Part shown: in pieces, positions 37,264 through 53,306 of the stretch
Position numbering within the stretch: position 1 is the first letter of the stretch
Layout of the letters: each line of letters opens with the position of its first letter
NCBI GenBank assembly: GCA_016931775.1
Contig: JAFGEC010000512.1
Span: 460 to 64,459, forward strand
DNA from: Candidatus Zhuqueibacterota bacterium
GTDB taxonomy: Bacteria; Zhuqueibacterota; Zhuqueibacteria; Residuimicrobiales; JAFGEC01
DNA length: 64,000 bases
Reading direction: 5' to 3'
Made by a program: the position numbers and the translations under genes
The notes under the pieces: generated by a model
The model's database searches: none
The model's input: only the letters and a program-made list of their open reading frames with translations
Told to the model about the DNA's origin: nothing

Positions 37264-40200
37264 TTACCGCAAAAACGTTACTTTTACAGCGCGATCAAAT
37301 CTTTCACTTTGCATTCTAATAAAATACAAACCGGAGGCAACCACAGTCCCGGCGTCATCCGATCCATTCCAAATGATTTCATGCCTTCCCCGAAGTTTAT
37401 TACCATCAAAGAGGGTGCGAACTTTTCTGCCATGAATATCAAAAACCTCAAGGCGAACAGACGCAGATTTCGGCAGAGCAAAGTTTATGACAGTTTCCGG
37501 ATTAAACGGATTGGGGAATGCGGGATAGAGTTCAAAGTTATCCGGCACCGAGTAAAAATTATTGTCAACAAAAGCCGCTGTGATGAGACTGACGTTATCC
37601 AGCTCTGCTTCACAAATTACACCGTCGGCGTGCGACGTAACGGGCATACCGAAATAAATTTCTTCATCCATAGTGATAGTCTGCACGCCGATCCTTCTCC
37701 ATGTGGTTCCATTTGGGGATTCCCAGGCAGAGATCTTGTCCCCCTCTCTCGTAAGACGTACCCAATACGGTGCACTGGTTTGTGTTCCCGCAGTATGAAC
37801 AGATGTTCCGCCAACCGTGGTACGGCGTTGAAAAGCAATGCCGTTTTGCGATGACAGGATCATCATGGCATGCTGTGATCCTGGTGTTAGTGAATTGCGA
37901 ATCATTACACCTGCCTTGGACCATGGATCGCTGTTTTCAACTGAAACGACCCTGGCCGTAATTTCGGCATCTCCCTTGATTTTCTGGTACACAAAATGAA
38001 AGGCATCGGCATTGTCCCAAATGTCGGCTCCTGAACCCCGAAGGACAAAACGATCCTGTCGCATTCCGGCAGTGCCGGCCAATAACGGCTGCCCGATATC
38101 CGTGCTTTGCCAGGGTGAGGCTAGAGGTTGGAGCTCGTTTCCAATAAATGTCAGGGACACATTATCAATATAAACTTCTCCCGGTTGCCCGCCGCAGTTA
38201 AAAACCACACGCGCAACGACATCGGTAGGGCGGGTCATTTCAAACTCGTATTTAAAATGTTTGAGCCGGCTGGTTAGCGCTGTAATCCCTATCCGGCCGT
38301 AATTGGTCTGTCTGGAATCGCCGGAGATAACTTTTGCTTCAATGGCGCGCGTCTCAGATGCATAGGCATCAAATTCAAAAGTATAATAATTATCCCTCAT
38401 GATAATGATATTATCCTGCCGTAACTGAACGTGCTCTGCATCTGACCCGCCATTGGTAATATTAATTTGATAGTATCCATCTGTATTTATCTGTCCTGTG
38501 GCACTTGCATCGCCGCTTTCTTCCAACTCCCAAAGATCCGGTGTATCAAAGCCGCCATTTTTAATGGCATTTTCACCGGGTTCCATTGTCGCAACAAGGG
38601 TATTTTCAATGCTGGAAAATTCGCCTTCGTGGCCGTTCTTATAGACTGCGGTTACACCAAAATAATACTGTGTTCCATTATTCAGGGTTCGAGCGTCAAT
38701 ATCGTACCAGGTTTGGTCCGTATCAGCCAACGGAGTGAGATTATCGGAATTTGTACCCACGTAAATTCGGTAAAAATTTACGTTGGGATCGCCGAATTTA
38801 TTAAAAATCAAGCGAACCACGGAACCGAGATTCTCGAGAATGAGGTAAGGATAGGGCATTTTACCTTCCCATTCATAACGGCGGCAACGGTAGGTTTCGA
38901 TGGCGACCACGAACATTTCCCAAACCACCTCGCCATCAGCCGTTACCTCGACCGCACGAATACGACCACCGGGAAATTCAACGAGCGTATTCCCGTTCGG
39001 CAACCGCTGTGCACTGCCCATCCAGCCTGAATACCAGTCGGGATCATGACGATACTCCCACACCTTTTCAGCTGTCATGTTACCCAGGTCCAGTTTATAT
39101 TCTACAGCCCTGGAAATTTGCGGACTCCGGTCTCGCCCGTTGTCAAACAGGAGGTAATGGTTCGGTTTGCCTACAACAGGATTTGCATCGTGCTGATAAG
39201 AAAATTTCAGGTTATCATTAATAAACTCAAAATCACTGTGCCGGCCGCCGAGTGTCCACATGACCTCTCCGGTCTTGCGATTTATTTTCATAATGGTGTG
39301 AAATTCGCGGGGAGAAATGATATAATTATCATCATAATCGATGGCAATGGAATTCATATGCACAAAATCGGTATAAGTGTCACGGATATTTACATAGGTA
39401 TCGCGTATATCCAAAAAATCCCAGGCGCGCCACTCAAAAATGACATTTTGATCCTTGTCCATTTCCTGGAAATGATGCCCCTCAACCGTCGCGTTTGGCT
39501 GCCCACCGGTAACCACATTGTTCATATTGATTCGGACCTGATCGCGTACCACCTGCAGGATGTTTCCGTTTTCAAGGATTTTAAATTCATGGTCATCTTC
39601 GTAATAACCATGCCCGGCATAAACGGTGTCGATTTCGACAAAATTTTGATCTAAAACGATATGCTTGTCTTCATAACAGTGAAAGGCAAGAACCCCCGTT
39701 GGATGAGCGGTGAAATCGCCGGTACGGGGAATACTCGTATAGCGCCGGTAGAAATAGGGCGTACCGTCGTTATCACAGATAACAATGTAATTGCCATATC
39801 CGCTGGCCAGGGTGGTTGTCGCGTAAAAAATGCGTCCCGGTGCGGTCTCGCCGTATTGATTTGTCGTGATCATGGGGAAATCACTCGGTACAGCAATGCC
39901 GTTGATCAATCGCACGGGGTATACATCCTGTTTTATTGGTGTTGGCGGTTCGTTGACCGCCGATTTGCCGAGCCAATCCAGTTCGTTCCCCGAAGTTTTT
40001 AGCGTCTGAAATGTATACTGAAAATTTTCGGCGCCTACCTGGGAGAGATGGATGGAAACGCTTATATTCTCGCCATATTTCAAGTTCTGGTTTGGTTTAA
40101 AGATAATTGTCCGGTTATCTCCGGCAAAAAATGTCGTTCCCGTGATTACCGACGTCTCTCCTGTTACACTGATCAGATTTGAAAGATTGGTAATTTTGTT

Positions 40201-40353
40201 GTTGTATGATTCCTCCAGTTTCAAAATCACAGTGGTTTTCACAGGCAGAAACTTGCTGTCCGGTAATGGAAAAATGTAGTCGATGATGGGATGGTATGGT
40301 CCAGATATCACACAACTAGACAAGAACAGAACAAAAGCGGCGATTTTTTTCAT
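37264..40353 (-). CDS. Large secreted multi-domain protein (1,029 aa) with a T9SS C-terminal domain. The central beta-propeller resembles arylsulfotransferase (ASST) and the C-terminal region a ConA/LamG-like jelly roll.
   Basis: Lipoprotein-like signal (LSSC). The T9SS CTD is FPNPFNPETVINF...VFDIHGRKV...GLYFIRM. The ASST assignment comes from remembered family resemblance only. Confidence 0.7.
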   Translation of the reverse strand: MKKIAAFVLFLSSCVISGPYHPIIDYIFPLPDSKFLPVKTTVILKLEESYNNKITNLSNLISVTGETSVITGTTFFAGDNRTIIFKPNQNLKYGENISVSIHLSQVGAENFQYTFQTLKTSGNELDWLGKSAVNEPPTPIKQDVYPVRLINGIAVPSDFPMITTNQYGETAPGRIFYATTTLASGYGNYIVICDNDGTPYFYRRYTSIPRTGDFTAHPTGVLAFHCYEDKHIVLDQNFVEIDTVYAGHGYYEDDHEFKILENGNILQVVRDQVRINMNNVVTGGQPNATVEGHHFQEMDKDQNVIFEWRAWDFLDIRDTYVNIRDTYTDFVHMNSIAIDYDDNYIISPREFHTIMKINRKTGEVMWTLGGRHSDFEFINDNLKFSYQHDANPVVGKPNHYLLFDNGRDRSPQISRAVEYKLDLGNMTAEKVWEYRHDPDWYSGWMGSAQRLPNGNTLVEFPGGRIRAVEVTADGEVVWEMFVVAIETYRCRRYEWEGKMPYPYLILENLGSVVRLIFNKFGDPNVNFYRIYVGTNSDNLTPLADTDQTWYDIDARTLNNGTQYYFGVTAVYKNGHEGEFSSIENTLVATMEPGENAIKNGGFDTPDLWELEESGDASATGQINTDGYYQINITNGGSDAEHVQLRQDNIIIMRDNYYTFEFDAYASETRAIEAKVISGDSRQTNYGRIGITALTSRLKHFKYEFEMTRPTDVVARVVFNCGGQPGEVYIDNVSLTFIGNELQPLASPWQSTDIGQPLLAGTAGMRQDRFVLRGSGADIWDNADAFHFVYQKIKGDAEITARVVSVENSDPWSKAGVMIRNSLTPGSQHAMMILSSQNGIAFQRRTTVGGTSVHTAGTQTSAPYWVRLTREGDKISAWESPNGTTWRRIGVQTITMDEEIYFGMPVTSHADGVICEAELDNVSLITAAFVDNNFYSVPDNFELYPAFPNPFNPETVINFALPKSASVRLEVFDIHGRKVRTLFDGNKLRGRHEIIWNGSDDAGTVVASGLYFIRMQSERFDRAVKVTFLR

Positions 40354-40860
40354 GGCTGTCTCCTCTCCAAAAACAAACGATGAACTATGACTTGTGTCGC
40401 TTTGAGCAGAGAATTTTATCCACTAAATAGTCCTATATAAGTGGCGGGAAAGGAACTTGTAGCGCAGGTAAAAATTTTTTAGCTCAATTGTTGAATTGCT
40501 GAGGAAACATTAAATAATTTTTGATTTACAAATGAAAAATGTATCCTCCCCGGTGAACTTTTGCTGCTTAAAAGTGTTTACTTCCTTTCAGTGAATTGCA
40601 TCATCACATCGAAAAGTCGACTGATTCTCTGCATCAATATGTTAATATTATACATATTTTTTAAATAAATATCAATATTTTTATTTTTATAAAATAATAG
40701 ACAGTTGTGAAAATTAGTCTTACTGAATTGCTTTGATGATGGATTCTGGAACATTAACAGCAACCATCAACAATAAAGAAGCCGGCAAATTATTAAGGTA
40801 TAGGACAATTCTTTTACGTTACCTCGCTTTACGGGAAAATGCTTGCATAATCTACTCAGA

Positions 40861-43059
40861 TCATTGAATCAGTATGCTTATTTCCAGGTCCTTATTTAGG
40901 TTCACAATTTTACTTGTTCCACCCACTTGAACGGTATAGGGCGAACATAAATTCTTTTTCCCATGACGAAATTCATACTCCTTCAATGTCACTTTTACTA
41001 TTCCACTGGAATCCGTACTTTTTGTCAGAGTGTTTCCGTTTTTTCCCCGGATAAACACAGGAATTTCGGCCGGATATTGCCCGTTCGAATCGTATACTTT
41101 TATCGTCAACATCCAGGATACTGAAAAGTGATGAGCAGCATCGGTATAATCCACATTGAAATCCGAATCAAGCACCTTGTTTGAGACAAAAAAGATATTC
41201 TCGGCAACAATTCCGTCTCTTCCTTTCCAACCCATTCTAATCGGAGAATAACCGGCCGTGGAATCCGGTGTGAGTATTATTGTATTTCCGATAAATTTTG
41301 CATTTTTTGCGCTTCCGTAGGGAGATGCGATCCAGGCGGCCGACACATTTGTCGTTATACGATTCTTTTCCCATATCCCGCCCTCGTTGGCGCCGCCGAT
41401 ATAAATCGCAGCAGCTTCGGCTTTGGAACTCGGAGCTGTATGATTGACGAATATTTCATTGTCATAGATATACGTCTCCCCGCCGCTCACACTGTGAAAA
41501 AACGCCCAAGCCATGGGTATATAATCCGGATATTGGGGATAATCTCTTCCCGTTATATAAAATTTATTTTTAAAAATTCGATTGTCCGCACATCCTCTTT
41601 CAGAACCCAGTTCGGCACTGTAATCCGCCACACGGATTGCGGTTGTACTGTATTCCTCATGACCATATTCACATGTGGGAGGAGATGCCTCAATAAAGAA
41701 TTCATTTTCGAATATCTGAATTCTTTTGTGGCGATAGATTTCCACACCGGATCCGATCTCCGGCTTAAATCGATTGTGATGGATTCGAGATCCGTCTCCC
41801 ATGGCCATCACACTGTAATGGTTGGTCACGGTCTGGCGATTGATAAAAAGGTTATTAAAAACATCCGAGTTCTCACCCATAATGGTGAGGCACCCCTGGC
41901 CCCCAATAATCTCACATTGGGAAACCATAGATGGTTGGGGACCACGCAGCACAACCGCATGTTCACTCACATGCCGGTTGATAATAAACGGCGTATCAAT
42001 TTCAAAACAACAATTGGTGATTTCCGCCTGGGGGACATCGACTGCGTTTGTGTTAATGCCGCTTGAAACGATTTTTACATTATCCAGAATAATTCTCACA
42101 CCCGGTGCCGTGGATTGGATACCCCAGGACAGAATAGCAGTAGTACCGTTTTTAATGACACCGTTTTTTATGGTAATGGTTCCATCACCTTCCACCCGGG
42201 CAATACCGTCTAACGGTTCGCTGAACGAGCCGTATTTCGTAAAATCAAAAAAAGCACAATGCCTGCCTGCATAAAGATCATCGTTTTGAGCAAACGGCAG
42301 CGTTTTCTCGACAATACCGATTCCGACATCCATGGCCGGACGCAGATCGATGTGGTCCACCAGGCAATCCGTTTCCGCACGTACCCGAATCCGGTACCGG
42401 CCGGTGGGACAACCGTGCATGTGCGCTGTGATAAATCCACCCCCGAGTCTCGGAGAACGGTTTATGGTAGGACAGCACCGGCGGGTGGAATCTCCCGTTG
42501 TTGAAAAGCATTCAATGGATCGGCCGTTTTCATCTTCAATAAAGAGACTGATTTTTTTGTCATGATGAGTCACACCGCACATGGCGAAGTAGGACCTATT
42601 GGCGATCGGCAGGTGGATATATTCCGAGACAATTTCATCGCCGGCAGACAATTGTAATAACTTTTCACCGATAAAAATTTGAACTTCGTCGGTTCGCTGA
42701 ATTTTGGCACCCGGTGCAAGCGAGGTGTCCCAATACTCAAGATCATTTTCAAAACCATAATTTGGAATGCGGCCGTAATCCGCGCCAGAATAAGTGATGG
42801 TATAACCGTTCAAATCAAGGGTCATATTTTTACCCAGGAAGATCGGACTACCGGGGCTTGATATATTTTGCACGAGCTGGTACGTTGTGTTGGGAACAGT
42901 GTAATTTCCCGGTGTAGAAACCGCCATCGCGCCGGGTTGGAGAGTTTGGGGCGTGACGGGGTGAAATACGGCTGCGGCTGGAGGGGGGATAAAGGTAAAA
43001 ATAACCAAATTGAGCAGGAGGACAAGGATCGTATTATTTCGGCGTTTTATTTTCATCAT
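40861..43059 (-). CDS. Secreted right-handed parallel beta-helix (pectate-lyase fold) protein, 732 aa, with no T9SS CTD
   Basis: Signal peptide MMKIKRRNNTILVLLLNLVIFTFIPPPAAA and repeated beta-helix turns (NxIxxN/GxxI). Its start ATG overlaps the stop of the upstream HNH gene (TAATG). Confidence 0.7.
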   Translation of the reverse strand: MMKIKRRNNTILVLLLNLVIFTFIPPPAAAVFHPVTPQTLQPGAMAVSTPGNYTVPNTTYQLVQNISSPGSPIFLGKNMTLDLNGYTITYSGADYGRIPNYGFENDLEYWDTSLAPGAKIQRTDEVQIFIGEKLLQLSAGDEIVSEYIHLPIANRSYFAMCGVTHHDKKISLFIEDENGRSIECFSTTGDSTRRCCPTINRSPRLGGGFITAHMHGCPTGRYRIRVRAETDCLVDHIDLRPAMDVGIGIVEKTLPFAQNDDLYAGRHCAFFDFTKYGSFSEPLDGIARVEGDGTITIKNGVIKNGTTAILSWGIQSTAPGVRIILDNVKIVSSGINTNAVDVPQAEITNCCFEIDTPFIINRHVSEHAVVLRGPQPSMVSQCEIIGGQGCLTIMGENSDVFNNLFINRQTVTNHYSVMAMGDGSRIHHNRFKPEIGSGVEIYRHKRIQIFENEFFIEASPPTCEYGHEEYSTTAIRVADYSAELGSERGCADNRIFKNKFYITGRDYPQYPDYIPMAWAFFHSVSGGETYIYDNEIFVNHTAPSSKAEAAAIYIGGANEGGIWEKNRITTNVSAAWIASPYGSAKNAKFIGNTIILTPDSTAGYSPIRMGWKGRDGIVAENIFFVSNKVLDSDFNVDYTDAAHHFSVSWMLTIKVYDSNGQYPAEIPVFIRGKNGNTLTKSTDSSGIVKVTLKEYEFRHGKKNLCSPYTVQVGGTSKIVNLNKDLEISILIQ

Positions 43060-43700
43060 TAAATCTTCGCCCCCTTTTCCCTGTTGCACCTCAGACAAAG
43101 CACCTGCAGATTTTGCACTGATGTGGCTCCACCCTGCGAAATGGGTATAATATGATCGAACTGCAAGTTTTCCTTTGAGCCGCAATTGACACAGCATCCA
43201 CCATCCCGCCGCCATACTTCACTGCGGATGGCCTCCGGTATCGGTTTGCGGCTGGTCTGTTCATAAGGTAATGGAGCGGGCGGAGTTTTGAAAACCAGGT
43301 TCGGTTCAATCGGCGGTGAGTTGGGAATACTGTAGTATTGTTTCGTCATCTCATGAATATCATGAAATATTTCTAAAACGATATCTGTACCGGGTGCGCC
43401 GGCAGGGGCATGCATTTTTTTATCGCAATAGACACACCGGTAATATACCGATCTGGCATTGGGGCTGATTTCCAATAGCTGCATGGAGAACTCGTGGCAT
43501 CTGGAGCATGGCTGAACCAGATACCGCTGTTCGACCAGTGAAATGAGATAATCCGATGCATCCTGTATGTTTTTAAGGAGGAACTTTCGTCTCCGGTAGC
43601 GACTCGTGTAGACGTAGATAAGAACCACAAAAAACAAAACAATTGAGCTTGATATGATAATCCACTCCACCGCACCATCCTCAATTAAGCTAAATAACAA
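43059..43700 (-). CDS. Membrane-anchored HNH endonuclease (N-terminal TM helix, CxxC...CxxC zinc ribbon, C-terminal HNH)
   Basis: TM segment IIISSSIVLFFVVLIYVY, then CSRCH...CVYCDKK, then the HNH motif CCVNCGS...LQFDHIIPISQGG...NLQVLCLRCNREKG. Confidence 0.75.
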   Translation of the reverse strand: MLFSLIEDGAVEWIIISSSIVLFFVVLIYVYTSRYRRRKFLLKNIQDASDYLISLVEQRYLVQPCSRCHEFSMQLLEISPNARSVYYRCVYCDKKMHAPAGAPGTDIVLEIFHDIHEMTKQYYSIPNSPPIEPNLVFKTPPAPLPYEQTSRKPIPEAIRSEVWRRDGGCCVNCGSKENLQFDHIIPISQGGATSVQNLQVLCLRCNREKGAKI

Positions 43701-44059
43701 AAACGTCTATCGAGAAAATTTCAAAATTATCTGGATCCTTTTCGTATTCTTCGTGAATCCGCGGGATACAGCGTTGAACACTTTGGACTTTGTTTATAAA
43801 AACATCGTTCATACCGGATACGCTTTGCCCGTTTTTTAAAAGTCTTTTAGACTTTCTTTTCTTTCTTCATTGAGTTTTTGATAAAACGATATAATCAACA
43901 CTTAAATTTCTTCTGGCTTTTGTTATTAATATAAATTAATCAAAAATAATCGATTTTACAAGCTGTAATTAAAATCGTTGATGAGCCTATTTTTTAATTG
44001 TTTTTTACAACCTTTTTCAAAAAACTTTGTATATACTATAAACACTGACGGAGTAAATT

Positions 44060-45430
44060 TTGAAATTTTTCTTAAACATCGACATATTCCTTCAGGCTCA
44101 AAGCGATCGAAAAACCAGACATTCGCTATTCGAGGCCATATGGAATTATTACTATGGACGATTGACTGTGTTTGTTCAAAAAAGTTGTGGAACGGACCCG
44201 GAGGATATAGTACAGGAGATATTGCTAAAAGTATATGACAATCTTGATAAATACAAGCCTTTTTATTCTTTTAATACATGGATTTACACCATTGCCAGAA
44301 ATTATTGCATCAATCAGTACCGGAAGAAAAAAATCGATCAACGACCACTGGAAGAAACGGCTCCGTATGATCTCCCGCAGGATGAAAAGAACAATCCGGA
44401 AAGCTTATACATCGCGCACGAGGAGACCGCCCGGATCGAAGAAATTTTACGTCAAATGGAGCCCGATCTGTATCAGATTGCATTTTTACGTTTTTTTGAA
44501 AAATTAAAATACCGTGAGATTGCCAGAATAGAACAAAAGCCGGTGGGAACCATCAAAGCACAGGAAAAGAACCATAGAGAGTTCAGAGTTCACCCTGCCT
44601 TATTTTTCCTTGAATTGTATTTTTTTATTTCCTATTTTTCCGGTAATAATTTACAAAAGGGTATCAATTTTAAAACATCGGAGGGTATCATGAGATTTAA
44701 ACTGTTCTTGAGCATTTTATTATTTGGTCTTGCAACATGTCTTTCCGCTCAATCGGATTTTGTGTTCGGTATCAAGCCGGGTAACACCGTCAATTCCGCT
44801 TATTTTGGATTAAAAATGGATAACCTCGTCCCTATGGTCGGCGTCGATGTGGTCTGGCTCACCGCTTCCGGCAAATATACTGACACGAGTGAGGATCAGT
44901 GGAATTCTTATTATGATGGAACGAATTACAAGCAGAAAACGGTCAGCAGCATTGATATGGAAGGCAGTGCGCTACTGCTGATTCCTCACATCGGTGCTAA
45001 ATACTTTCTGGGCAGTGGTGACGTTAAACCTTATTTTTTCGGTAATGCGTTTTTTTCCATGCCATCCGTTAAAATGGAATCCAGTTGGAAAGACGAATCA
45101 TGGTATTATGAAGATAACCGTCAGGTCGATCACGATACCGATAAAGGATCTGAGGATCTGGATGAAGAGACTGAGGATATTATCAAAGATGTGCTCGGAT
45201 TTTGGGGAATTACAATCGGCGGTGGCGCAGAATACTTCTTCAGTGAGAGATTCAGCATCGGTGGAGAGTACGGTATCAGGCTTTTGTTTAATTCGGTGAA
45301 CATTTCCGGTGAATCGGGTGATTCCGATCCCAATGGATATGGACAATCCTATCGCAATGAATGGGAGGGTGAATTGTCTGCAAGTTTAAGGGTGACATAC
45401 GCTGTGGTTTCATTGAATTTTTACTTTTAG
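44060..45430 (+). CDS. ECF (sigma-70 family) sigma factor reading in-frame, with no stop, into a signal-peptide-bearing outer-membrane beta-barrel-like protein. The ECF part is about 44060-44650; the barrel part is 44689-45430 with its own RBS. TTG start.
   Basis: Region 2 is ...DPEDIVQEILLKVYDNLDKYKPFYSFNTWIYTIARN... and region 4 is ...FLRFFEKLKYREIARIEQKPVGTIKAQ.... After GGAGGG-tatc-ATG comes MRFKLFLSILLFGLATCLSAQS and a beta-rich 245-aa domain ending ...LNFYF. No in-frame stop separates the two parts. Confidence 0.6.
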   Translation: MKFFLNIDIFLQAQSDRKTRHSLFEAIWNYYYGRLTVFVQKSCGTDPEDIVQEILLKVYDNLDKYKPFYSFNTWIYTIARNYCINQYRKKKIDQRPLEETAPYDLPQDEKNNPESLYIAHEETARIEEILRQMEPDLYQIAFLRFFEKLKYREIARIEQKPVGTIKAQEKNHREFRVHPALFFLELYFFISYFSGNNLQKGINFKTSEGIMRFKLFLSILLFGLATCLSAQSDFVFGIKPGNTVNSAYFGLKMDNLVPMVGVDVVWLTASGKYTDTSEDQWNSYYDGTNYKQKTVSSIDMEGSALLLIPHIGAKYFLGSGDVKPYFFGNAFFSMPSVKMESSWKDESWYYEDNRQVDHDTDKGSEDLDEETEDIIKDVLGFWGITIGGGAEYFFSERFSIGGEYGIRLLFNSVNISGESGDSDPNGYGQSYRNEWEGELSASLRVTYAVVSLNFYF

Positions 45431-45509
45431 ACGGAATAAATTTTTGTTCAGCCGTGTTCTATTAATTGAACAGAAAGAAACATTCGTTTCCGTCTCTCCT
45501 CCTTGTCAT

Positions 45510-45537
45510 AAAAGCCCGATCGAAAGATCGGGCTTTT
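45510..45537. terminator. Bidirectional rho-independent terminator between convergent genes
   Basis: AAAAGCCCGATC-gaaa-GATCGGGCTTTT; the stem is flanked by A-tract on the 5' side and T-tract on the 3' side on both strands. Confidence 0.6.
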
Positions 45538-45572
45538 ATGCTTAGGCCTGTGAGCAGAGTAGGGAATAGTTC

Positions 45573-46559
45573 TTAATTGGTGTAAAGCCAACGGGCGTAG
45601 TAGTAACCCTTTCCGGCCTCGCTTGCCGTCCAGCGACCCTTATATTGACCTCTGGTTATATTTTTCTCGATCCACACGCCTTGAATGGCCCCGGCTCCTA
45701 TTTCTTCTCTTGTGTAGGTTCCTCTCATGAAGCCGATAAAATGGCCGTCAATCGCGATTATTTTACCGTGCATGACCTGGCGTCCGTCTTTGGTAACGCC
45801 CCATATTCCTTTCACGTGACCGCGTAATTGTGAGCTGTGGTCGACCCATTTACCCCAGAATCGGCCCCGGTTGCTTTGCGCTGAATCCGCTTTGACCCAA
45901 CGGCCTTCAAGAAAGCCGCCGTCGATCGGTGCAACCGTATTGCTCTGGGAGATAATGGAGATTTCATGGCCTTGTTCGGTAACGCTTTCCAGCAACTCGA
46001 GGGCTTCAAGTTCGCTGAAGGTAAACGTACCGGAATATTGATCGGTTTCAATCACTAACTGTCCATCGGTTTGTATGCTTTCGGGGACCACGATGACCAG
46101 CAATATACCATCAAAATGCGGACGGACAGTGGATGTCCAACTGACCGTTTGCGGATCGGTGCGCGGCAGAATGAATTGATCGCCGGTCAATTTTTCGAAA
46201 TGGATTGTGCGGCGGACACCCAGTAAACCCTGTGTGACCGAAGCCGTACCGTTAAAACTGACCACGGTGGCGGCAGTTGAATCGTATTTCAGCAAACCCC
46301 AGACAATACGTACAAAATAAACATCCATAGAATCTGTGTTCAGCGATGCTGTGAGATATGGATCGTTTACGTACTCATCATCCTGAAAGTCTTCGAACAA
46401 TTCGGATTCACCGAAAACCGGTTTTTCATCGGATGTGGTAAATCCGCCGTTTTCGAGTTCCAGCGGATCCGTCATGACGGATTCCGGTTCGGTGGGTGAT
46501 TCTGAACACGCCGTCAAAAGGCTGAAAACAATAATGGGAATCATCAAATAAAATTTCAT
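45573..46559 (-). CDS. Hypothetical lipoprotein (328 aa) with a Gly/Trp-rich repeat C-terminus
   Basis: Lipobox LLTAC after MKFYLMIPIIVFS. AGGAGA RBS. Confidence 0.6.
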   Translation of the reverse strand: MKFYLMIPIIVFSLLTACSESPTEPESVMTDPLELENGGFTTSDEKPVFGESELFEDFQDDEYVNDPYLTASLNTDSMDVYFVRIVWGLLKYDSTAATVVSFNGTASVTQGLLGVRRTIHFEKLTGDQFILPRTDPQTVSWTSTVRPHFDGILLVIVVPESIQTDGQLVIETDQYSGTFTFSELEALELLESVTEQGHEISIISQSNTVAPIDGGFLEGRWVKADSAQSNRGRFWGKWVDHSSQLRGHVKGIWGVTKDGRQVMHGKIIAIDGHFIGFMRGTYTREEIGAGAIQGVWIEKNITRGQYKGRWTASEAGKGYYYARWLYTN

Positions 46560-46756
46560 CTTTGGTCTCCTAAATTGGTTTTGATGAATAACTGATCGCC
46601 TGGGTTTCAGCAAGGAACGGGCCAGAAAAAGGGTTTTCGTAAGTAATATTAAGTTTTTTATTGACTTATATTGTTTTTTTGGGGATGGTAAGAAAAAAAA
46701 GTGTACCGGCATGTGCGGAATGGTGAACGGTTTGTACCGGAGGGTACAAGTTCAAA

Positions 46757-46790
46757 GAACAATGATCAATGAACAATGATCATACTTTTT
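46757..46790. repeat. Tandem copies of the 13-mer TGAACAATGATCA (contains an ATGATCAT palindrome); also present at 60595-60625
   Basis: gaacaatgatcaatgaacaatgatcatac seen directly. A third copy, tgaacaatgatcagcgaatagtgatca, lies downstream of the alkD-like gene. Confidence 0.5.
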
Positions 46791-46815
46791 ACGCATTGTA
46801 CTCTGAAAAAATAGT

Positions 46816-49800
46816 CTACTTAACCAGCAGCATCTTGCGCGTTTCCGAGTAATCCCCAGCCTGAAAACGGATAAAATATATGCCGTTACCGCCGAGTTTA
46901 CCGCCGGCGAGACAGCCGTTCCATTGGATGCTGTGGTAACCGGCCGGCTGCCGCGCATCGACAAGAGTGACTACTTGCTGCCCAAGCATATTGTATACCT
47001 TAATGGTCACTTTTTCGGGAATGGGCAGCTGATAGCGGACCGTGGTACCGGTTTGTCCGTCGAGTCGGCTCGAGAACGGATTCGGGTAATTCTGGTGCAG
47101 TGCGTAGCGGTCCGGAACACCGTCCGTATCGGGTGTTTGAATACCGGTTTCGCCGACCCGGAAGGTCACGGGTATGGTGAAAGAATGGTTTGTCGGATCG
47201 TTGTTTTGTACGCTAATATTGGTTGTATAAATTCCGGGCTGAAGCTCAGAGGCATCGAACGTGACAGGGATCGATACCAAAGGATTTGAACCTGTGCGGT
47301 CAAAGTACCTGTCAAACGAAAGCCACGGGGAACCGGAAACCGTAAAGGGAATCGATATAAATTCTCCTCTGGGAGCATAGTCATAAATTCTTGATTCTTT
47401 GTCGGTTAATACACAAAGCATACGAAGAGTGTGCGGATTTCCGATTTGCTCCAAACGAAGACCGAACAAAAGCATCTGCTCCTCGGAATTCCAATCCATG
47501 TAACGGGGCTGGCTATAGCCGGATATCGGCCTGAATTCGTTATGCCCGGGAGACCACTGCACGATGTATGCTGAAAGCCCTTCGTATAGAAATAAATAGT
47601 CCGCACCCAGGTCGCTTACAGTTAATCCGGTGTCGCTGTTAAAATCCGTATCAAAAAACAGAAAATACTGTATTGCATCGCCGTCCGCTTCGGTGATCAG
47701 ATGTTTGAAATATAAATCCGATTGATTTTTATGAATGTATAAATTTCGCAGGGCAGGGAGACTGCCGTCAACGGATTCCTGATGATATAAAATTTTCCAA
47801 TCGTCGGGCTCCGGTTGTCGGTCGACCGGTGTAGCTTCCTCCGTGTGGGGTAACAGTACGGACATGGTTTTCAGAACGGTTGAAACATCTATAGGCTGAT
47901 TAGATAACGGTGTTCCGGCGCCGCCGGATTCGTAGATAAAAAATTCTAAAATCCCATTATTGGTGTTTATTAAGAATAAAGTGTCCTGGGTAATTTCTCC
48001 GGCAGGTACAGAAACATACAAAGAATCGTTTGCGGATATTCGCGGTGAATAGAGCTCAAAATCCAGCATTTGCCGCCCGTCGAGTTTTACACGGATTTCC
48101 GCACTTTGTGTATAATTTTCGGCCCATGCTGTGAGGATATAATCGTCCTGAGGCAGGGCCATTGTAAAAAATCCACTGGAATCCGCCAGTTTTGCGCCAA
48201 AATTGTTATTCCCGCCGGTCAAATAACTGACCACTTGCCGCCACAGGACAATACCCGGTACTCCCTCGCCGTCCGCCGCATCAGTAATCCTGCCGGACAC
48301 GCAATAACTATAGACAATGGTTATAAAAAATCGGCCGGTGAAAACACTCCCGCTGGCATCGGTCATTTTCACCTCAAAGGAAACCTGATGATCGTGCTGT
48401 ACCGAAGGGGAAACATGGACGCTCAGATGTTCCTGTGTGAACACTGTAGACCGTACATCGATGCGGTCCAAGACGATGGTTGAGTCTATGACAGTCACCG
48501 ATGTGTCGGTTGTCGATAAACAGATTTTTACATCTTCTGCGGCCAAATCACCGGTATTCTCGATCTGCAGATAAATATTCAGGTTTTCTCCGGGATTGGC
48601 ATAACCGTCTCCGTTACCCGCACCGGTTTGCGAACTGTCGTCGTCTATCACTGTCGAATTCAGGCCCAGCAGAGGACGAATGTCCAGAGGAGCGCCGTTA
48701 AACCACTCCAGGACATCCTGGATAAAAAGCGAACGGCTTTGGGGCGGGATAATTGTTTCGAGTTTGAAAGAACAGTAGACCAGTTTATAAGTATCCGTTT
48801 GCACACCCAGTGCTGCGGTACCGGAAGATTGAATGGTTCCCGTGCCGGTTCCCGGTTTATAATGAAGAACAGGAAATGCCGGTTCTATGGGATCGATTTC
48901 AGTAGGCCAGATGTTTTCATCGGCATCCAGCAAAATATCCATGTCGGTTACCGGATTGCCGTCAGTATGCTCCAGGCCGAATAGCTGGGTCTGGATGCCG
49001 GCAAATGCGGCGTGGAGATAATCGGTATAAAACGGGCTGTTGCGCAGGTGATAGCCGATAAATTCACCGGATAACAGCAGATTACCGCCGTCGTCCAGGT
49101 AGCCGCCTATTAATTCCTGCTCCGCCGAAGAGAGGTTGTTCCGGCCGGCACTGCCGCAATACCAGATGACCGATTTATAATTCATCAGTTGTTCACGGCT
49201 GATGGATTCACCGGTGTTGTTATCCCATAAAACCAATTGGATGCCTATCTCCTGAGCCGCAGCGATATATCTGCTGGAAATATCGGTTTCCCCGTCATCG
49301 GCAACCAGCAAGATCGGTTCCTGACTCAGCAGGATATAAACCGGTACAGATCGTGTATAATATCCCGCGCCCTCCGAGATGTTGAGGTGGAATTCTACCC
49401 TGTGTGGCAATGCAGAAGGAGAGATTGTTAAAATCCACGGATCAAGCGAGTTATCCCCGCTTGTCTGTTTTTCAATAGCGGGAAACACTGAAGTGTCTTT
49501 CGTGATCTGGATATCCGGGTCTGTTGTGGAAAGGATGACGGAAATGTCCCGTGCAACACGCTTTCCGGAATTGAAAAGATTGACCGTTAACTGACATGTT
49601 TCACCCGGATCGGCCGCCTGGTTACCGTTACCGGCAATCTCAAAAAGCTGTTGTGAGCTGGCGTACAGCTCAGGCTGTTCCACCTTGATGTGAATGAAAT
49701 TTTCCCAGCTATGACTTGCATCGTCGCGAATGATCAATTTCAGGATAAAAAGATGGTCTGCAGGTGTATTGCTGCTGATATCCAATTGATAGGTAACGGG

Positions 49801-51327
49801 TACCGACTGTCCGATTGCCAAATCGATTCCTGAAAAAGTATCTTTGTAAATCCGAGCCATTGGGTCGGATGATTCCAGTTGAACGGACAGGTTTTCTGAC
49901 GGTGTCGATCCGATATTTTTAACGTTTACCGTGAGTTTTACTGTTTCTCCCGGATCGATAAAACCATTGTCGTTACCGGCGATGTTGTCCTGGATGCTAA
50001 AATCGGAATAAGTGACGTAAGCATCGTCTATAGATTCCGGTGCACCTGCAACGGTAGCCAAAGTGGCTAATCCCGTTTTCACTACCTGGCTGAAATAAGG
50101 TATGGAAACGTTTTCGATGGTATCGCTGATTTTATGCCAGTTGGGACTGAAATCCTCTTCCTCTCCATATATAAAATAGTAGCCCCGTTGACGAAAGGGC
50201 ACATGGTCGCTGCCACCGCCTGCTGTTATAATGCGTGGTGTAAGAGATGTATATTGGTAGGCCAGATTTTGCATGAGATCGGCAAAATGACGGGAAACAT
50301 TATCCGTGGCTATATTGAGTCCTGTACCCGGATTCCCTGGATTTACATTGCCGATCATGTCAAAATTAATGTACAAGCCGATATTCATGTTGCCCTGATA
50401 CGCTCTGGCAACCCAATCCGTGCTGCCGTACAATCCCTGTTCCTCTGCAGCCCAACAGGCAAATTTCACCGTACATTCAAGATCGATATCCGCCAATAAA
50501 CGGGCTGACTCCAAAACGGCTATAGTACCGGTTCCGTCGTCATCAACACCGGGTGCATAAATCATGGGATTGTTTCCATCATGGACGATCGAATCATAGT
50601 GCCCGCCGATAACGATTACGCTGTCGGGATAAAGTGTGCCTTTTTTCGTTGCGATAATATTGCGTTGAAGTTTGTTTTCCACGGGTATAGTGAGTGTATC
50701 GAAAACAATATCGGTGTAGCCGAATTCTTGAAATTTATCATATAACCATTGACCTGCGGCATAAACAGAGTCGGATCCCGAGAAACGTGTGCGAAACGCC
50801 TGCAGGCGCTGGAGACCTGCCGTTAACGTGCCTTCGGAAACACGGTTGACCAGCGACCGGATAACCGGGTCCTGTGTGAATCCGGAGGAAGACAAGTGCT
50901 TTACCGGCGGTGATATCAGCGGCAGGGGATCACGTGATAACGGTGTGACTTTAAAAGGTCCCTTGACCGGTTTCTCTTGCGGGGAGAGTCCGATAATAAA
51001 GCCCTGTTCGTTTTGCCAGATGGGCTTGGCGGGAGGGGTGACCTCCCTTCCGGGCACCGGTTCGAGCAGATAGTAATTTTTTCCCCATGCCGATTCGTCC
51101 AATAGCTCGAATTGAAAGCCCAATCCCTGTAGCTTGACGGCGGCCTCCCGGGTTGTGGTTACAATCATCATGTCGTCCTGGCGATAGTTTAAGCGAATCG
51201 GCAGGGCAGCGAGTTGTGATATGTCTTTACCGTTTATATCGATCTTTATCAGAATGTCGGAGGGTGTGCTGTTAATGAGAGATGAGAATAATAATAATAT
51301 TACAAGTGTTTTTTTTGTTGTCTTCAT
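46816..51327 (-). CDS. Giant secreted M28-family zinc aminopeptidase (1,503 aa) with multiple Ig/CARDB-like domains and a T9SS C-terminal domain
   Basis: Signal peptide MKTTKKTLVILLLFSSL. M28 motifs IGGHYDS, GVDDDGTG and EEQGLYGS. The T9SS CTD is YPNPFSS...VYNMLGQQV...GIYFIRF. Confidence 0.85.
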   Translation of the reverse strand: MKTTKKTLVILLLFSSLINSTPSDILIKIDINGKDISQLAALPIRLNYRQDDMMIVTTTREAAVKLQGLGFQFELLDESAWGKNYYLLEPVPGREVTPPAKPIWQNEQGFIIGLSPQEKPVKGPFKVTPLSRDPLPLISPPVKHLSSSGFTQDPVIRSLVNRVSEGTLTAGLQRLQAFRTRFSGSDSVYAAGQWLYDKFQEFGYTDIVFDTLTIPVENKLQRNIIATKKGTLYPDSVIVIGGHYDSIVHDGNNPMIYAPGVDDDGTGTIAVLESARLLADIDLECTVKFACWAAEEQGLYGSTDWVARAYQGNMNIGLYINFDMIGNVNPGNPGTGLNIATDNVSRHFADLMQNLAYQYTSLTPRIITAGGGSDHVPFRQRGYYFIYGEEEDFSPNWHKISDTIENVSIPYFSQVVKTGLATLATVAGAPESIDDAYVTYSDFSIQDNIAGNDNGFIDPGETVKLTVNVKNIGSTPSENLSVQLESSDPMARIYKDTFSGIDLAIGQSVPVTYQLDISSNTPADHLFILKLIIRDDASHSWENFIHIKVEQPELYASSQQLFEIAGNGNQAADPGETCQLTVNLFNSGKRVARDISVILSTTDPDIQITKDTSVFPAIEKQTSGDNSLDPWILTISPSALPHRVEFHLNISEGAGYYTRSVPVYILLSQEPILLVADDGETDISSRYIAAAQEIGIQLVLWDNNTGESISREQLMNYKSVIWYCGSAGRNNLSSAEQELIGGYLDDGGNLLLSGEFIGYHLRNSPFYTDYLHAAFAGIQTQLFGLEHTDGNPVTDMDILLDADENIWPTEIDPIEPAFPVLHYKPGTGTGTIQSSGTAALGVQTDTYKLVYCSFKLETIIPPQSRSLFIQDVLEWFNGAPLDIRPLLGLNSTVIDDDSSQTGAGNGDGYANPGENLNIYLQIENTGDLAAEDVKICLSTTDTSVTVIDSTIVLDRIDVRSTVFTQEHLSVHVSPSVQHDHQVSFEVKMTDASGSVFTGRFFITIVYSYCVSGRITDAADGEGVPGIVLWRQVVSYLTGGNNNFGAKLADSSGFFTMALPQDDYILTAWAENYTQSAEIRVKLDGRQMLDFELYSPRISANDSLYVSVPAGEITQDTLFLINTNNGILEFFIYESGGAGTPLSNQPIDVSTVLKTMSVLLPHTEEATPVDRQPEPDDWKILYHQESVDGSLPALRNLYIHKNQSDLYFKHLITEADGDAIQYFLFFDTDFNSDTGLTVSDLGADYLFLYEGLSAYIVQWSPGHNEFRPISGYSQPRYMDWNSEEQMLLFGLRLEQIGNPHTLRMLCVLTDKESRIYDYAPRGEFISIPFTVSGSPWLSFDRYFDRTGSNPLVSIPVTFDASELQPGIYTTNISVQNNDPTNHSFTIPVTFRVGETGIQTPDTDGVPDRYALHQNYPNPFSSRLDGQTGTTVRYQLPIPEKVTIKVYNMLGQQVVTLVDARQPAGYHSIQWNGCLAGGKLGGNGIYFIRFQAGDYSETRKMLLVK

Positions 51328-51523
51328 GGTTTCTCCACAAATGTGATTTGTAAAGATTAAAAAAGTTGTCATTCAGCAATTTTAGGTTTTGGTAATATAC
51401 GGAGAAATTATACAAAATAAATTAAAGATTTTTATTGCGGACTTTCAGACAGTAATTTTATTTTCACTGACGATGATTTTTTTTGATGAAATTTCTTGTT
51501 TTGGTTTTAAATGATTTGATTTT

Positions 51524-51979
51524 TTACAACCGAAACCGAAATCCGCCGCCGATGACAAAATCATCATAATCACCCATGATGAGTTTGGCTTGCAGGTATG
51601 GAATCGAGCCGCGGTTTTTAAACCCGATTCCGAACAGCAGGTTGAGCCCGGTATCGCTATCACCTTTATCGGCGCCGTCTGCTTTCAAGCGTGTCATGGC
51701 AAGTCCGCCGCCGACCCAGCCGTAGGATTTTCTGCTGCTGTAAATGTAGTACAAAACATCAAAATTAATGGTCATATAGGAAACATCTTCTACAAATACG
51801 TATTCCAGATTGGGATTGAAATCGAGACGGGGTGCCAATTTGAATACCAGATCTCCGCCAATAAAAAACTCATCCACATCCGTATACAATCCTGCGCGGA
51901 TACCGGCAAGCGGTGCGGCCGTGGCGGCAGGTGAGAGAAGAGCGACTGTAAAGAACAGTAAAAGTAATCTTTTCGCCAT
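51524..51979 (-). CDS. Small outer-membrane beta-barrel protein (151 aa)
   Basis: Signal peptide MAKRLLLLFFTVALLSPAATAA, alternating amphipathic beta-strands and a C-terminal aromatic tail (GFRFRL). Confidence 0.55.
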   Translation of the reverse strand: MAKRLLLLFFTVALLSPAATAAPLAGIRAGLYTDVDEFFIGGDLVFKLAPRLDFNPNLEYVFVEDVSYMTINFDVLYYIYSSRKSYGWVGGGLAMTRLKADGADKGDSDTGLNLLFGIGFKNRGSIPYLQAKLIMGDYDDFVIGGGFRFRL

Positions 51980-52278
51980 TGGTAAATCCTCCTTTATGAT
52001 TGTTAACTGAAAAATATACACATGTGATTCTGAAGGGGAGGTGACAGATGTCACGAAACCGGGAACAAAAATATATCATTTGGTGGTTTTCCCTGCTTGC
52101 CGAAATCAAAGTAGTTGTTGAATTGTTCTGATTTTTCCTGAAAATATGATGCTGTTTCGAACAGGATCATTATGAAGCAGTATTTTAAGTGCGGAATCAA
52201 GATGCTTTGTTCAGCTGAAAAAGGGCTGGATTGTTAATTTTTTTATGATAAATTTTAAGTACTTTAAGCAAGATATCT

Positions 52279-52668
52279 GTGTTGTATTTAAAATCCGGCA
52301 TAACCATGGCATCCTTTTTTGAACAGGTGTGGTATCTGGTAGCAAAAATTCCCTGCGGAAAGGTGGCGACTTACGGTCAGATTGCCTATTTGTTGGGGAA
52401 TCCGAGAGCGGCGAGAACGGTAGGCTGGGCGCTTCATGGTATACCCGACGATTTGGATATTCCGTGGCATCGTGTCATCAACTCCAAGGGTAGAATCAGT
52501 ATGGATTGCGGCGAGCACGATCCGGATTTGCAGCGTTTATTGCTGGAAGGAGAAGGGGTGGAATTTGTGAACGACCGGATTGATTTGGTGCGCTACCAGT
52601 GGCGGCCGGTTGATGAGAATTTAAATTTATCTCCATTAGATGAGAAAGAACCTCAAGATGCCGTTTGA
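52279..52668 (+). CDS. Alkyltransferase-like (ATL) protein: the MGMT/Ogt DNA-binding domain with Trp replacing the active-site Cys
   Basis: ...KIPCGKVATYGQIA...NPRAARTVGWAL...IPWHRVIN.... This is PWHRV rather than PCHRV. The start could be the ATG at 52306. Confidence 0.75.
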   Translation: MLYLKSGITMASFFEQVWYLVAKIPCGKVATYGQIAYLLGNPRAARTVGWALHGIPDDLDIPWHRVINSKGRISMDCGEHDPDLQRLLLEGEGVEFVNDRIDLVRYQWRPVDENLNLSPLDEKEPQDAV

Positions 52669-53306
52669 CGTGATGGGCACAGGTGTGCGATGGGGCATTT
52701 CCCGCACAACGGCTGGCGTGCTTTGCAAATGGTTCGCCCCAGTTTTAAAAAGTTCATGTGCAGGGAAAAGGATTTTCCGTCGGGAACGAGGGGCTGCATC
52801 AAAAAATGCGTTTTTTCCGCACTGGCGTTTTCCGGCACCAGATTCAGTTTGCGGCAAATCCGGTGCACGTGTGTGTCCACCGGAAAAATATCCACACCAC
52901 AGGTAAACATCAGCACCACGGCGATGGTTTTAATGCCGATGCCCTTAAGCTGGGTAAAGGTTTCGATGGCATGGTCCGGTTGCATCTCACATAAAAAATC
53001 CAGATTCAATTCGCCGGTCCGTTCGACAATCCAGTGCAAAAATTTTTGGATGCGTTCGCTTTTTTGGTTAGCCAATCCTGCAGGACGAATGGTATCGGCA
53101 ATGTCCGAAGTGGGTTCATCGAGTAACAGGGACCAATCCGGGTAACGTTCTTTCAGGCGGTGATAGGCCATGTCCCTGTTTTTATCATTGGTATTTTGCG
53201 ACAGGATCGTTTTTATCATGCTGGACAGGGGATTGCCCCGGCCATTCCATTGCGGGACGCCGAAAAAGTCTTCCAGGCAAGCTGTGATTTCTGCGACATT
53301 GTCCAT
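52653..53306 (-). CDS. nth: Endonuclease III (HhH-GPD DNA glycosylase with a [4Fe-4S] cluster)
   Basis: HhH-GPD region ...LKGIGIKTIAVVLMF... and a C-terminal CKARQPLCGKCPIAHLC cluster loop. Confidence 0.85.
   Translation of the reverse strand: MDNVAEITACLEDFFGVPQWNGRGNPLSSMIKTILSQNTNDKNRDMAYHRLKERYPDWSLLLDEPTSDIADTIRPAGLANQKSERIQKFLHWIVERTGELNLDFLCEMQPDHAIETFTQLKGIGIKTIAVVLMFTCGVDIFPVDTHVHRICRKLNLVPENASAEKTHFLMQPLVPDGKSFSLHMNFLKLGRTICKARQPLCGKCPIAHLCPSRQTAS

Follow-up and report, generated by a model that had tools for sequence, protein, structure and literature searches.

The annotated protein MBN2000284.1 probably reflects an ECF sigma factor gene that has lost its 3′ end and stop codon and runs by chance into a neighbouring, self-sufficient gene for an outer-membrane beta-barrel protein. 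The two parts most likely represent two gene families of separate origin, placed head to tail. The frame is uninterrupted from a TTG start to position 45430 of the window (the whole 64-kb stretch of DNA analysed) and encodes 456 aa on the plus strand, as the initial annotation had stated. It is also real: the open reading frame (ORF) plus 13,360 flanking bases is identical in a Logan contig of SRR13394437, a second, independent assembly, which was built separately and crosses the junction without a break. Because the sigma frame is open into the barrel frame, gene callers give one 456-aa ‘sigma factor’. Feature coordinates are given in Table 1.

Table 1 Features of the composite ORF and its flanks, in window positions
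Feature	Position	Strand	Remarks
ECF-type promoter CAACC-N16-GTATA	44008..44033	+	52 nt 5′ of the sigma start
GGAG ribosome-binding site for the TTG start at 44060	44050..44053	+	From sequence; sigma N-terminus aligns with family N-termini
Composite ORF, 456 codons	44060..45430	+	NCBI: single sigma-70 family protein, MBN2000284.1, candidate division KSB1
ECF sigma factor core, codons 1-168	44060..44563	+	Sigma-2, linker and sigma-4 to the first third of the recognition helix (...PVGTIKAQ)
42 stop-free codons EKNHREFRVHPALFFLELYFFISYFSGNNLQKGINFKTSEGI	44564..44689	+	Homology to neither family
Sigma-70-like promoter TTGAAT-N17-TATTTT for the barrel gene	44610..44638	+	Putative function; missed by a stricter consensus scan
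Ribosome-binding site GGAGGG	44680..44685	+	4 nt before the in-frame ATG 44690
Predicted stand-alone outer-membrane beta-barrel protein gene, 246-aa precursor plus stop	44690..45430	+	Homologues start at the same Met
Sec-type signal peptide MRFKLFLSILLFGLATCLSAQS	44690..44755	+	From sequence; predicted cleavage A-Q-S|D
Perfect 15-bp hairpin CATAAAAGCCCGATC GAAA GATCGGGCTTTTATG	45507..45540	.	Inverted repeat I6; after the barrel gene

The N-terminal part is an ECF-type sigma factor core (aa 1-168) in which only the r2 and r4 domains are matched, sigma-1.1 and sigma-3 being absent (Pfam). TIGR02937 is matched above its cut-off (91.4 versus 42.9 bits), as is Pfam Sigma70_r2 (53 versus 24 bits) over aa 42-91, placing the sigma-2 domain (regions 2.1-2.4) there. 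The region 2 and region 4 motifs named in the initial annotation were both found (DPEDIV...TWIYTIARN, aa 46-81; YREIARIEQKPVGTIKAQ, aa 151-168), but the ‘complete’ sigma factor of about 195 codons that it described ends at codon 168, with the family tail gone and Pfam Sigma70_r4_2 below its cut-off (21.4 versus 25.7 bits), matched at profile positions 3-45 of 54 only. The window copy thus lacks a complete sigma-4 domain with a whole 4.2 recognition helix. Similarity to every relative ends at about aa 167-169, and the relatives go on for ~18-22 conserved residues. On the family HMM, the window copy matches positions 4-172 of 190 (~200 bits), and 17/17 relatives reach positions 185-190. The alignment proposed earlier for locating the end of region 4.2 accordingly finds all 17 relatives longer by ~18 conserved residues. 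The C-terminal tail of the relatives (...GTVKSRLHxIRxxLxxxLExY-E-) is absent here in every frame. Before the break, no invariant residue of the family is missing as far as K166, and the upstream promoter motif is exact; with core and promoter looking undamaged, the truncation is either recent or else tolerated. AlphaFold2 confidence is mostly >90 (pLDDT) to aa 170, except for a low-confidence sigma-2/sigma-4 linker at ~aa 91-110, and the model has a 14-residue helix (aa 162-175) at the place of the recognition helix, with pLDDT ~60 past aa 170.

The relatives also indicate what else is missing. The motif [GC]AAC[CT]-N16-GTATA precedes the sigma gene at all 13 loci of the P0019-like ECF family, and this upstream site is its sole occurrence on both strands of those loci (87 kb). 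CAACC-N16-GTATA, presumably the sigma gene's own autoregulated promoter, is the one occurrence in the 64-kb window (chance expectation 2). The motif is absent in the window before the barrel gene and before the divergent HNH/beta-helix pair, so that the suggestion, made earlier, that the sigma factor may regulate that pair finds no support. At 11 of the 13 close sigma loci, a gene for a 69-115-aa single-TM protein starts 7-25 nt before the sigma stop. The gene tables for the related loci list no Pfam match for this partner family; its position and topology make the small single-pass membrane protein a probable anti-sigma factor. The window copy has no such single-TM partner overlapping a sigma stop, a trait of the P0019-like family, and no partner homologue was detected among the window ORFs of 30 aa or more (HMMER, filters off, E ≤ 1). 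A by-product of modest use is the description of an ECF family in which the promoter motif is sharply conserved and a mini membrane partner is translationally coupled to the sigma gene.

The downstream part is predicted to be a gene in its own right. The signal peptide and the beta-barrel ending in ...LNFYF that had been read from the sequence were borne out: the 246-aa precursor is modelled by AlphaFold2 as a beta-barrel (mean pLDDT 90.9) with an N-terminal helix at residues 2-18. It combines a signal peptide, a closed antiparallel barrel (in the model) and a C-terminal aromatic residue, all traits of outer-membrane barrels. The 32 homologues start with their own Met at the position of ATG 44690 (window M211) or at most one residue off, the exception being P0002, whose gene call starts 19 codons upstream, and have a signal peptide there too; signal peptides align across 33 sequences. 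The best match (P0003, 246 aa) shows 67% identity across its residues 5-246 (E=9e-105), another (P0004) is 55% identical, and the barrel family HMM reaches 333 bits (window aa 212-457), so that homology to the P0003-like stand-alone barrel family is full-length from its own Met. Pfam OMP_b-brl (PF13505) stays below its cut-off (19.5 versus 28.7 bits). PDB matches are to generic small outer-membrane barrels only, and the best ones are all outer-membrane barrels. The family has a conserved acidic, helix-bearing loop (precursor residues 159-169) and ranges over KSB1, Zixibacteria, Delongbacteria, Bacteroidota and Gemmatimonadota metagenome-assembled genomes (MAGs); recognition of this uncharacterised family of ~240-aa barrels in several phyla is a second by-product of modest use.

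Among relatives, the two parts occur neither fused nor as neighbours. None of the best 150 matches from an exhaustive phmmer search against 1.84 billion representative proteins covers both halves. Sigma matches are stand-alone proteins of ~130-200 aa (mostly 170-200) with ~15-25 target residues left unmatched, and barrel matches are stand-alone proteins of mostly ~240 aa, in which target residue 2-20 aligns to query residue 211-230. Longer barrel relatives were considered as possible sigma fusions (P0005, 362 aa; P0012, 449 aa; P0110, 351 aa; and a 473-aa ORF at locus L011) and rejected, none matching the sigma part; the N-terminal extensions of P0005, P0012 and P0110 begin with separate signal peptides and do not resemble sigma factors. 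No sigma gene lies near the barrel gene, within ~4 kb, at any of 16 barrel loci, and no barrel gene lies near the sigma gene at any of 17 sigma loci. These counts reject conserved sigma-barrel synteny (a Rosetta-stone event), and the check recommended at the outset, of sigma-barrel gene pairs versus fusions in relatives, returned neither. The extension is accordingly not conserved within the sigma group. Querying a genome collection with the full-length protein yielded no match, a word-indexed protein search gave, besides the protein itself, a single barrel homologue (44%), and a metagenome scan with the sigma alignment gave nothing closer than 45%. As far as sequence comparison reaches, the fusion is a singleton. 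The ancestral state of the locus has to be derived from distant relatives because the closest found share 45% (sigma) and 67% (barrel) protein identity.

The 126 nt at the junction are most likely former intergenic or 5′-UTR DNA of the barrel gene. Among the 150 best matches, sigma alignments all end at aa 167-179 and barrel alignments all start at aa ≥202. GC content here is 0.32, compared with 0.39 in the sigma part, 0.43 in the barrel gene and 0.29 in the upstream intergenic region, and AlphaFold2 pLDDT drops across the linker from 60 to 51 to 41. The hydrophobic linker noticed earlier was located at aa 180-193 (ALFFLELYFFISYF, nt 44597-44638); its hydrophobicity reflects T-rich DNA. The promoter-like element has a counterpart at L003, the locus of the closest barrel homologue (67% identical protein), where the corresponding place holds TTGAAT-N17-TACATT, equal in spacing but with an unrelated spacer sequence. 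L003 also has GGAGTG at the place aligned with the ribosome-binding site, and AGGAGG precedes the ATG at L002. Of the internal ATG with GGAGGG-N4 that had been described, the ribosome-binding site and spacing stand, with the ATG at 44690 rather than 44689. An out-of-frame TGA, put at about 44619, is actually at 44611-44613; TAG 44575 shares its frame, and the third frame is open to TGA 44691, which overlaps the ATG. A repeat scan gave nothing meaningful that would mark a repeat or mobile-element junction at 44564-44600, and a terminator scan found no terminator-like site between the sigma part and the barrel gene. Runs of 42 stop-free codons arise in 4% of mononucleotide and 6.7% of dinucleotide shuffles, and 5.7% of low-GC 126-nt stretches in the window are stop-free. 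These values are compatible with a frame open by chance (~4-7%), which is uncommon, yet unremarkable for one item picked from a genome scan.

We propose that all of the locus 3′ of codon 168 (the tail, the stop codon and also the partner gene) was lost through a deletion or rearrangement. The truncated sigma gene would now adjoin the 5′ region of a barrel gene that keeps its promoter-like element, ribosome-binding site, ATG and signal peptide, and the 126 nt between them would by chance be stop-free in the sigma frame, which coincides with the barrel frame. The barrel protein would be made from ATG 44690, through its own promoter and also from any read-through transcript, since no terminator intervenes; the hairpin beyond it is a likely bidirectional terminator closing the unit. 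The chimera would be made only so far as the sigma promoter still fires, which is doubtful if the damaged sigma-4.2 helix cannot read its own -35 element. Several points weigh against this explanation: the ancestral locus can be reconstructed from distant relatives only, a frame that is open with a chance of ~4-7% and in the barrel frame with a chance of ~1/3 is a low expectation for a single locus, and the sigma core and promoter look undamaged, with AlphaFold2 still drawing a helix at the recognition place. Of the readings first offered, two genes with a lost stop codon comes closest to the evidence, except that the event was larger than a point mutation (~18 codons and the partner gene are gone). 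Insertion of a barrel cassette into a sigma-partner operon, whose remainder would lie downstream, was rejected, as the window has no partner homologue and only 140 nt, including the likely terminator, come after the barrel gene.

A sequencing or assembly indel is an unlikely source of the open frame. One base more or less in 44576-44690 would give two ordinary adjacent genes, the sigma gene ending at TGA 44611-44613 (~184 aa) or at TGA 44691-44693, overlapping the barrel ATG as ATGA. The T5, T7 and T5 runs at 44603-44607, 44620-44626 and 44635-44639 are in its favour, as are a stop at 44611 that would bring the length within the 180-200-aa family range and the ATGA overlap, a common type of operon junction. 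However, the separately built Logan contig spanning the junction has the identical sequence. All single- and double-base deletions in 44520-44689 were also scored with a family HMM from which the window sequence had been left out: a single-base shift never recovers the tail, the best gain being 2.8 bits with HMM positions 173-190 unmatched, and a simple frameshift was rejected as the source of the odd tail. The partner gene is missing regardless, and with a stop restored the sigma factor would still be an atypical, truncated family member.

It is very improbable that the 456-aa protein is a genuine single-chain regulator, the membrane-tethered sigma factor among the first readings. Its internal signal peptide would insert in the inner membrane, signal peptidase would free the barrel into the periplasm, and the sigma factor would remain tethered by the hydrophobic segment until a membrane protease acts, the tether standing in for the lost anti-sigma partner. 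The open frame, the lack of a terminator between the parts, and the intact sigma promoter and core are consistent with this. So is the absence of the partner gene, as is usual in ECFs with C-terminal regulatory extensions (PMC7826278), and sigma/anti-sigma hybrids released by regulated proteolysis exist (IutY, ECF48/52/53; PMC8999054). Against it stand the 0/150 matches to both halves, the lack of synteny of the two families, and a linker of intergenic composition that holds a barrel promoter-like element and a ribosome-binding site, both shared with a stand-alone relative. Moreover, the cut in the sigma-4.2 helix falls where residues normally contact DNA, Pfam detects no anti-sigma-like domain in the extension, and the hydrophobicity of the linker is what T-rich DNA encodes. 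The chance is about as slim that the chimera is both translated and used, in which case it would be Sec-targeted and cut after AQS by signal peptidase to release the barrel, while what is left of the signal peptide would hold the sigma factor at the inner membrane until either a signal-peptide protease or a site-2 protease acts; this would be an anti-sigma-free sigma factor with activation coupled to outer-membrane protein export. Ribosomal frameshifting, by a -1 slip on A-TTT-TTC (44601-44607) that would lead to TGA 44611 and a ~184-aa sigma factor while non-slipping ribosomes make the chimera, has next to no probability: the T-rich, slippery-like run lies 4 nt 5′ of the out-of-frame TGA and the product length fits the family, but the heptamer is not a perfect one (the P-site would re-pair from TTT to ATT), neither the repeat scan nor the terminator scan shows a stimulatory structure downstream, and the product would still lack the family tail.

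Such a run-on into a self-sufficient gene, most likely accidental, is no new type of membrane-tethered sigma factor, and the case is mainly a matter of annotation: MBN2000284.1 is better described as a 3′-truncated ECF sigma gene to which a separate gene, for an outer-membrane protein, has been joined. Loss of a stop beside T-rich promoter DNA produces a convincing-looking ‘sigma-TM-periplasmic domain’ layout, a trap into which automated surveys for C-terminally extended ECF sigma factors can fall. The locus would bear on the origin of new membrane-tethered sigma factors only if the chimera is made and processed.

Like the N-terminal domain of OmpA, OpcA, Pla/OmpT and Thermus TtoA, to which Foldseek probabilities are 0.9-1.0, the barrel has a signal peptide, an all-beta barrel model and a C-terminal aromatic residue (…LNFYF); TM-scores to these small monomeric barrels are only 0.2-0.4, however, identity is ~10% and Pfam OMP_b-brl is sub-cut-off. 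The sigma part resembles canonical ECF (group 4) sigma factors co-transcribed with a membrane anti-sigma factor (the RpoE/RseA and SigW/RsiW operons) in having sigma-2 and sigma-4 only, with TIGR02937 above cut-off, and, as a family trait, an AAC...GT-type promoter before its own gene; in its relatives, a single-pass membrane gene is translationally coupled to the sigma gene. Unlike those operons, the window copy lacks its last ~18 residues (sigma-4.2 and tail), its stop codon and the partner gene. On paper, the ORF also recalls ECF52 (SCO4117), ECF48/53, ECF263 and IutY, with a sigma factor, a hydrophobic segment, an extracytoplasmic domain and no anti-sigma gene (PMC7826278, PMC8999054, PMC5826349). 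Their extension, however, is conserved within the group and has an anti-sigma (zinc-finger or FecR-like) module, and their sigma-4 is complete, whereas the extension here occurs in one genome only and consists of another gene's promoter region and a complete secreted-protein precursor, behind a truncated sigma-4. No anti-sigma (zinc-finger or FecR-like) or other regulatory domain was found in aa 169-456, where Pfam gives only the sub-threshold OMP_b-brl. The composite does match, with no material difference, chimeric ORFs that arise by loss of a stop or 3′ end (deletion fusions, or merged calls in draft and metagenome-assembled genomes): two unrelated domain sets share one frame, the downstream translation signals are kept, the fusion occurs once only and the junction is of intergenic composition, with a biological event favoured over a base-calling error.

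The composite ORF is a single open frame of 456 codons, running from TTG 44060 (preceded by GGAG at 44050-44053) to TAG 45428-45430, and it probably represents a 3'-truncated ECF sigma gene whose frame happens to stay open across the promoter and 5'-UTR of a gene, sufficient by itself, for an outer-membrane beta-barrel protein. A Logan contig of run SRR13394437 carries the same ORF within 13,360 identical bases (window 39398-52757), and the product is recorded at NCBI as MBN2000284.1, 'sigma-70 family RNA polymerase sigma factor [candidate division KSB1 bacterium]'. The initial annotation was largely correct on the open frame and its landmarks, as the sigma motifs, hydrophobic stretch, GGAGGG, internal ATG, signal sequence and LNFYF end are all present. 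Two coordinates needed amendment: the ATG is at 44690 rather than 44689, from which translation meets 24 stops, and the out-of-frame TGA placed near 44619 is at 44611. The description of a complete ECF sigma factor did not hold.

Features of the composite ORF, its surroundings and related loci (coordinates are of the window unless a locus is named)
Feature	Position	Remark
ECF-type promoter motif	44008-44033	sole occurrence in the 64-kb window
Sigma motif DPEDIV...TWIYTIARN	aa 46-81	
Sigma motif YREIARIEQKPVGTIKAQ	aa 151-168	
Hydrophobic stretch ALFFLELYFFISYF	aa 180-193	
Promoter-like element TTGAAT-N17-TATTTT	44610-44638	inside the linker
GGAGGG	44680-44685	followed by 4 nt (N4) and in-frame ATG 44690
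Signal sequence MRFKLFLSILLFGLATCLSAQS	after ATG 44690	246-aa precursor with LNFYF end
Perfect 15-bp hairpin	45507-45540	3' of the barrel gene
Beta-helix gene	40861-43215 (-)	
HNH gene	43059-43700 (-)	
Peptidase_M28 gene	46816-51372 (-)	
Partner gene	L006 1492-1731; L019 3557-3793; L020 3566-3913	also in L022-L030
Peptidase_S26 gene	L006 1777-2313; L019 3862-4767	

Judged against its relatives, the sigma part (codons 1-168) is truncated. After G-T-[VI]-K, every relative in the family alignment has ~18-22 more residues of the form SRLHxIRxxLxxxLExY-E-, and the window sequence at this point, EKNHREFRVHPALFF..., agrees with that tail at none of its conserved hydrophobic positions. On a family HMM of 190 positions built without the window sequence, window residues 4-168 cover positions 5-172 and 17/17 relatives extend to positions 185-190; Pfam Sigma70_r4_2 aligns over profile positions 3-45 of 54 only, with a score under the cut-off. 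AlphaFold2, given the family alignment, returned a pLDDT of 93-96 up to aa 170 and of ~60, 51 and 41 in successive blocks past it. All invariant residues of the family through K166 are kept and the promoter motif is intact, so the truncation is either recent or tolerated.

The tail was not found in the other frames of the junction (+1, HRKRTIESSEF...; +2, NHQSTGKEP*). A frame error hiding it was rejected after all 1- and 2-base deletions over 44520-44689 had been scored against the family HMM (maximum gain 2.8 bits). The indel error suggested initially would place the true stop at 44611 or 44691; it is unlikely, and a restored stop would not give back a normal sigma factor.

In relatives, the sigma stop codon is overlapped by a partner gene encoding 69-115 aa with one hydrophobic span, its ATG lying 7-25 nt before the stop in 11/13 close family loci. 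At the nucleotide level, the sigma C-terminal LE.. codons furnish the partner's GGAG and ATG in L006, L019 and L020. Most partners have an N-terminal KKIMxxYYxxxLxxI motif and end in W.S.G+.L....F; they have no recorded Pfam family. From position and topology, the partner is probably the cognate anti-sigma factor, a miniature one not described before. In two sigma-family loci the pair is followed by a gene for signal peptidase I (Peptidase_S26), a hint that the regulon may concern the envelope or secretion.

The window lacks sigma tail, sigma stop codon and coupled partner, and a partner HMM run against all ORFs of 30 aa or longer in the window (HMMER filters off, E<=1) found no homologue. A single deletion or rearrangement from about nt 44564 onward would account for all three absences. 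The proposal of two genes whose stop codon was lost thus stands in this extended form and not as bare stop loss, since tail and partner are also missing.

The 42 stop-free codons of the linker (44564-44689) are, on composition and motifs, best read as the barrel gene's own control region. Their GC content is 0.32, compared with 0.29 in the upstream intergenic region and 0.39 and 0.43 in the coding parts. At L003, the locus of the closest barrel homologue, TTGAAT-N17-TACATT and GGAGTG stand at aligned places, with equal promoter spacing and different spacer sequence; an in-frame stop precedes the ATG, and no sigma tail occurs in the 180 bases present upstream. The hydrophobic stretch at aa 180-193 is the kind of peptide that T-rich codons (TTT, CTT, TTG, TAT, ATT) specify. 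Across the linker, two forward frames out of three lack a stop, and shuffles put the chance of 42 stop-free codons at 4-7%. Frame +1 relative to the ORF is stop-free over 44540-44693, its terminal TGA overlapping the barrel ATG (ATGA); by changing one base, the fusion could become two genes with a classic overlap. The closest barrel homologue, P0003, lies on three contigs of different assemblies, all of which break 153-180 nt 5' of the gene (L003 1-180; L004 and L005 1-153), and the first bases of L003 are GC-rich and partly palindromic (GCAAGCACGCGCAGCGTGCT...); a repeat may have halted the assemblers.

The proposed signal peptide and beta-barrel domain were borne out by an alignment of 33 barrel proteins, in nearly all of which an initial Met, then a basic residue, then a hydrophobic signal peptide line up with window M211, and by an all-beta AlphaFold2 model (pLDDT 90.9) whose single short helix (residues 159-169) lies within the acidic loop. 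The PDB matches returned by Foldseek were all small outer-membrane barrels of a generic kind (Pla/OmpT, OpcA, OmpA, Thermus TtoA; TM-scores 0.2-0.45, identity ~10%), the Pfam OMP_b-brl match was below threshold, and the family is uncharacterised and found in MAGs of several phyla. The barrel protein would be made from its own ATG, and production of the chimera would require the sigma promoter still to be active.

That promoter-like motif, [GC]AAC[CT]-N16-GTATA, in which the 16-nt spacer never varies, is sharply conserved 5' of the sigma gene in 13/13 family loci (L006, L019-L030) and occurs nowhere else in them (87 kb, both strands counted). No terminator-like site was found between sigma and barrel parts, so any transcript from the ECF promoter would take in the barrel gene. 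The window scan found no motif 5' of the barrel gene, nor any on the strand that carries the divergent HNH/beta-helix pair, leaving its suggested regulation by the sigma factor unsupported. This unusual pair, separated from the sigma gene by a 359-nt gap of 29% GC, comprises a 203-213-aa protein with an N-terminal hydrophobic segment and a C-terminal HNH endonuclease domain and, directly after it, one of 732-784 aa whose NosD/beta-helix and Ig-like matches are weak. A 1518-aa Peptidase_M28 protein has weak or faint CARDB/NPCBM-associated and FlgD-Ig matches and a faint Por_Secre_tail match, a hint that type IX secretion might export it; the sigma-family locus L020 likewise adjoins an M28 peptidase gene.

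An exhaustive phmmer search of the composite protein against 1.84 billion representative proteins gave 27,111 matches, and each of the best 150 matched one half only. Among these 150, barrel-half matches were almost all 225-260 aa, with target residues 2-20 on query 211-230 and alignment to the last residue (top matches P0003, 246 aa, 67%, E=9e-105, and P0004, 55%); sigma-half matches were mostly 170-200 aa (highest identity 45%), and their alignments stopped at query aa 167-179, mostly with 15-25 target residues left over. Sigma-barrel gene pairs, which the initial annotation had proposed looking for in relatives, were also not found: no sigma gene lay near the barrel gene at 16 barrel loci (L002-L005, L007-L018; flanks up to 4 kb), and no barrel gene at 17 sigma-family loci (L006, L019-L034). 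Four longer barrel relatives (P0005, P0012, P0110 and L011 3305-4723) have a further N-terminal domain of 120-230 aa, placed after a signal peptide of their own; none of the four matches the sigma part, and the extensions of the first three look periplasmic. The barrel is thus modular in other lineages, yet in no case attached to a sigma factor.

The novel architecture first considered, read here as a genuine tethered sigma factor whose release is coupled to export, is highly improbable given the lack of fused matches among the best 150 of 27,111, the incomplete sigma-4 and the lack of a regulatory module. A short sigma factor terminated by a frameshift is barely credible. Hybrids of sigma and anti-sigma in a single chain are known, as are ECFs whose extensions span the membrane (ECF52 SCO4117, ECF48/53, ECF263 and IutY), each with a group-conserved extension, a recognisable regulatory module and a complete sigma-4 before it (PMC7826278, PMC8999054, PMC5826349). 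The window ORF differs from them on all three counts: its extension is not group-conserved, holds no recognisable regulatory module and is not preceded by a complete sigma-4. The composite ORF is best filed with chimeric ORFs that arise when a gene loses its 3' end together with its stop codon.
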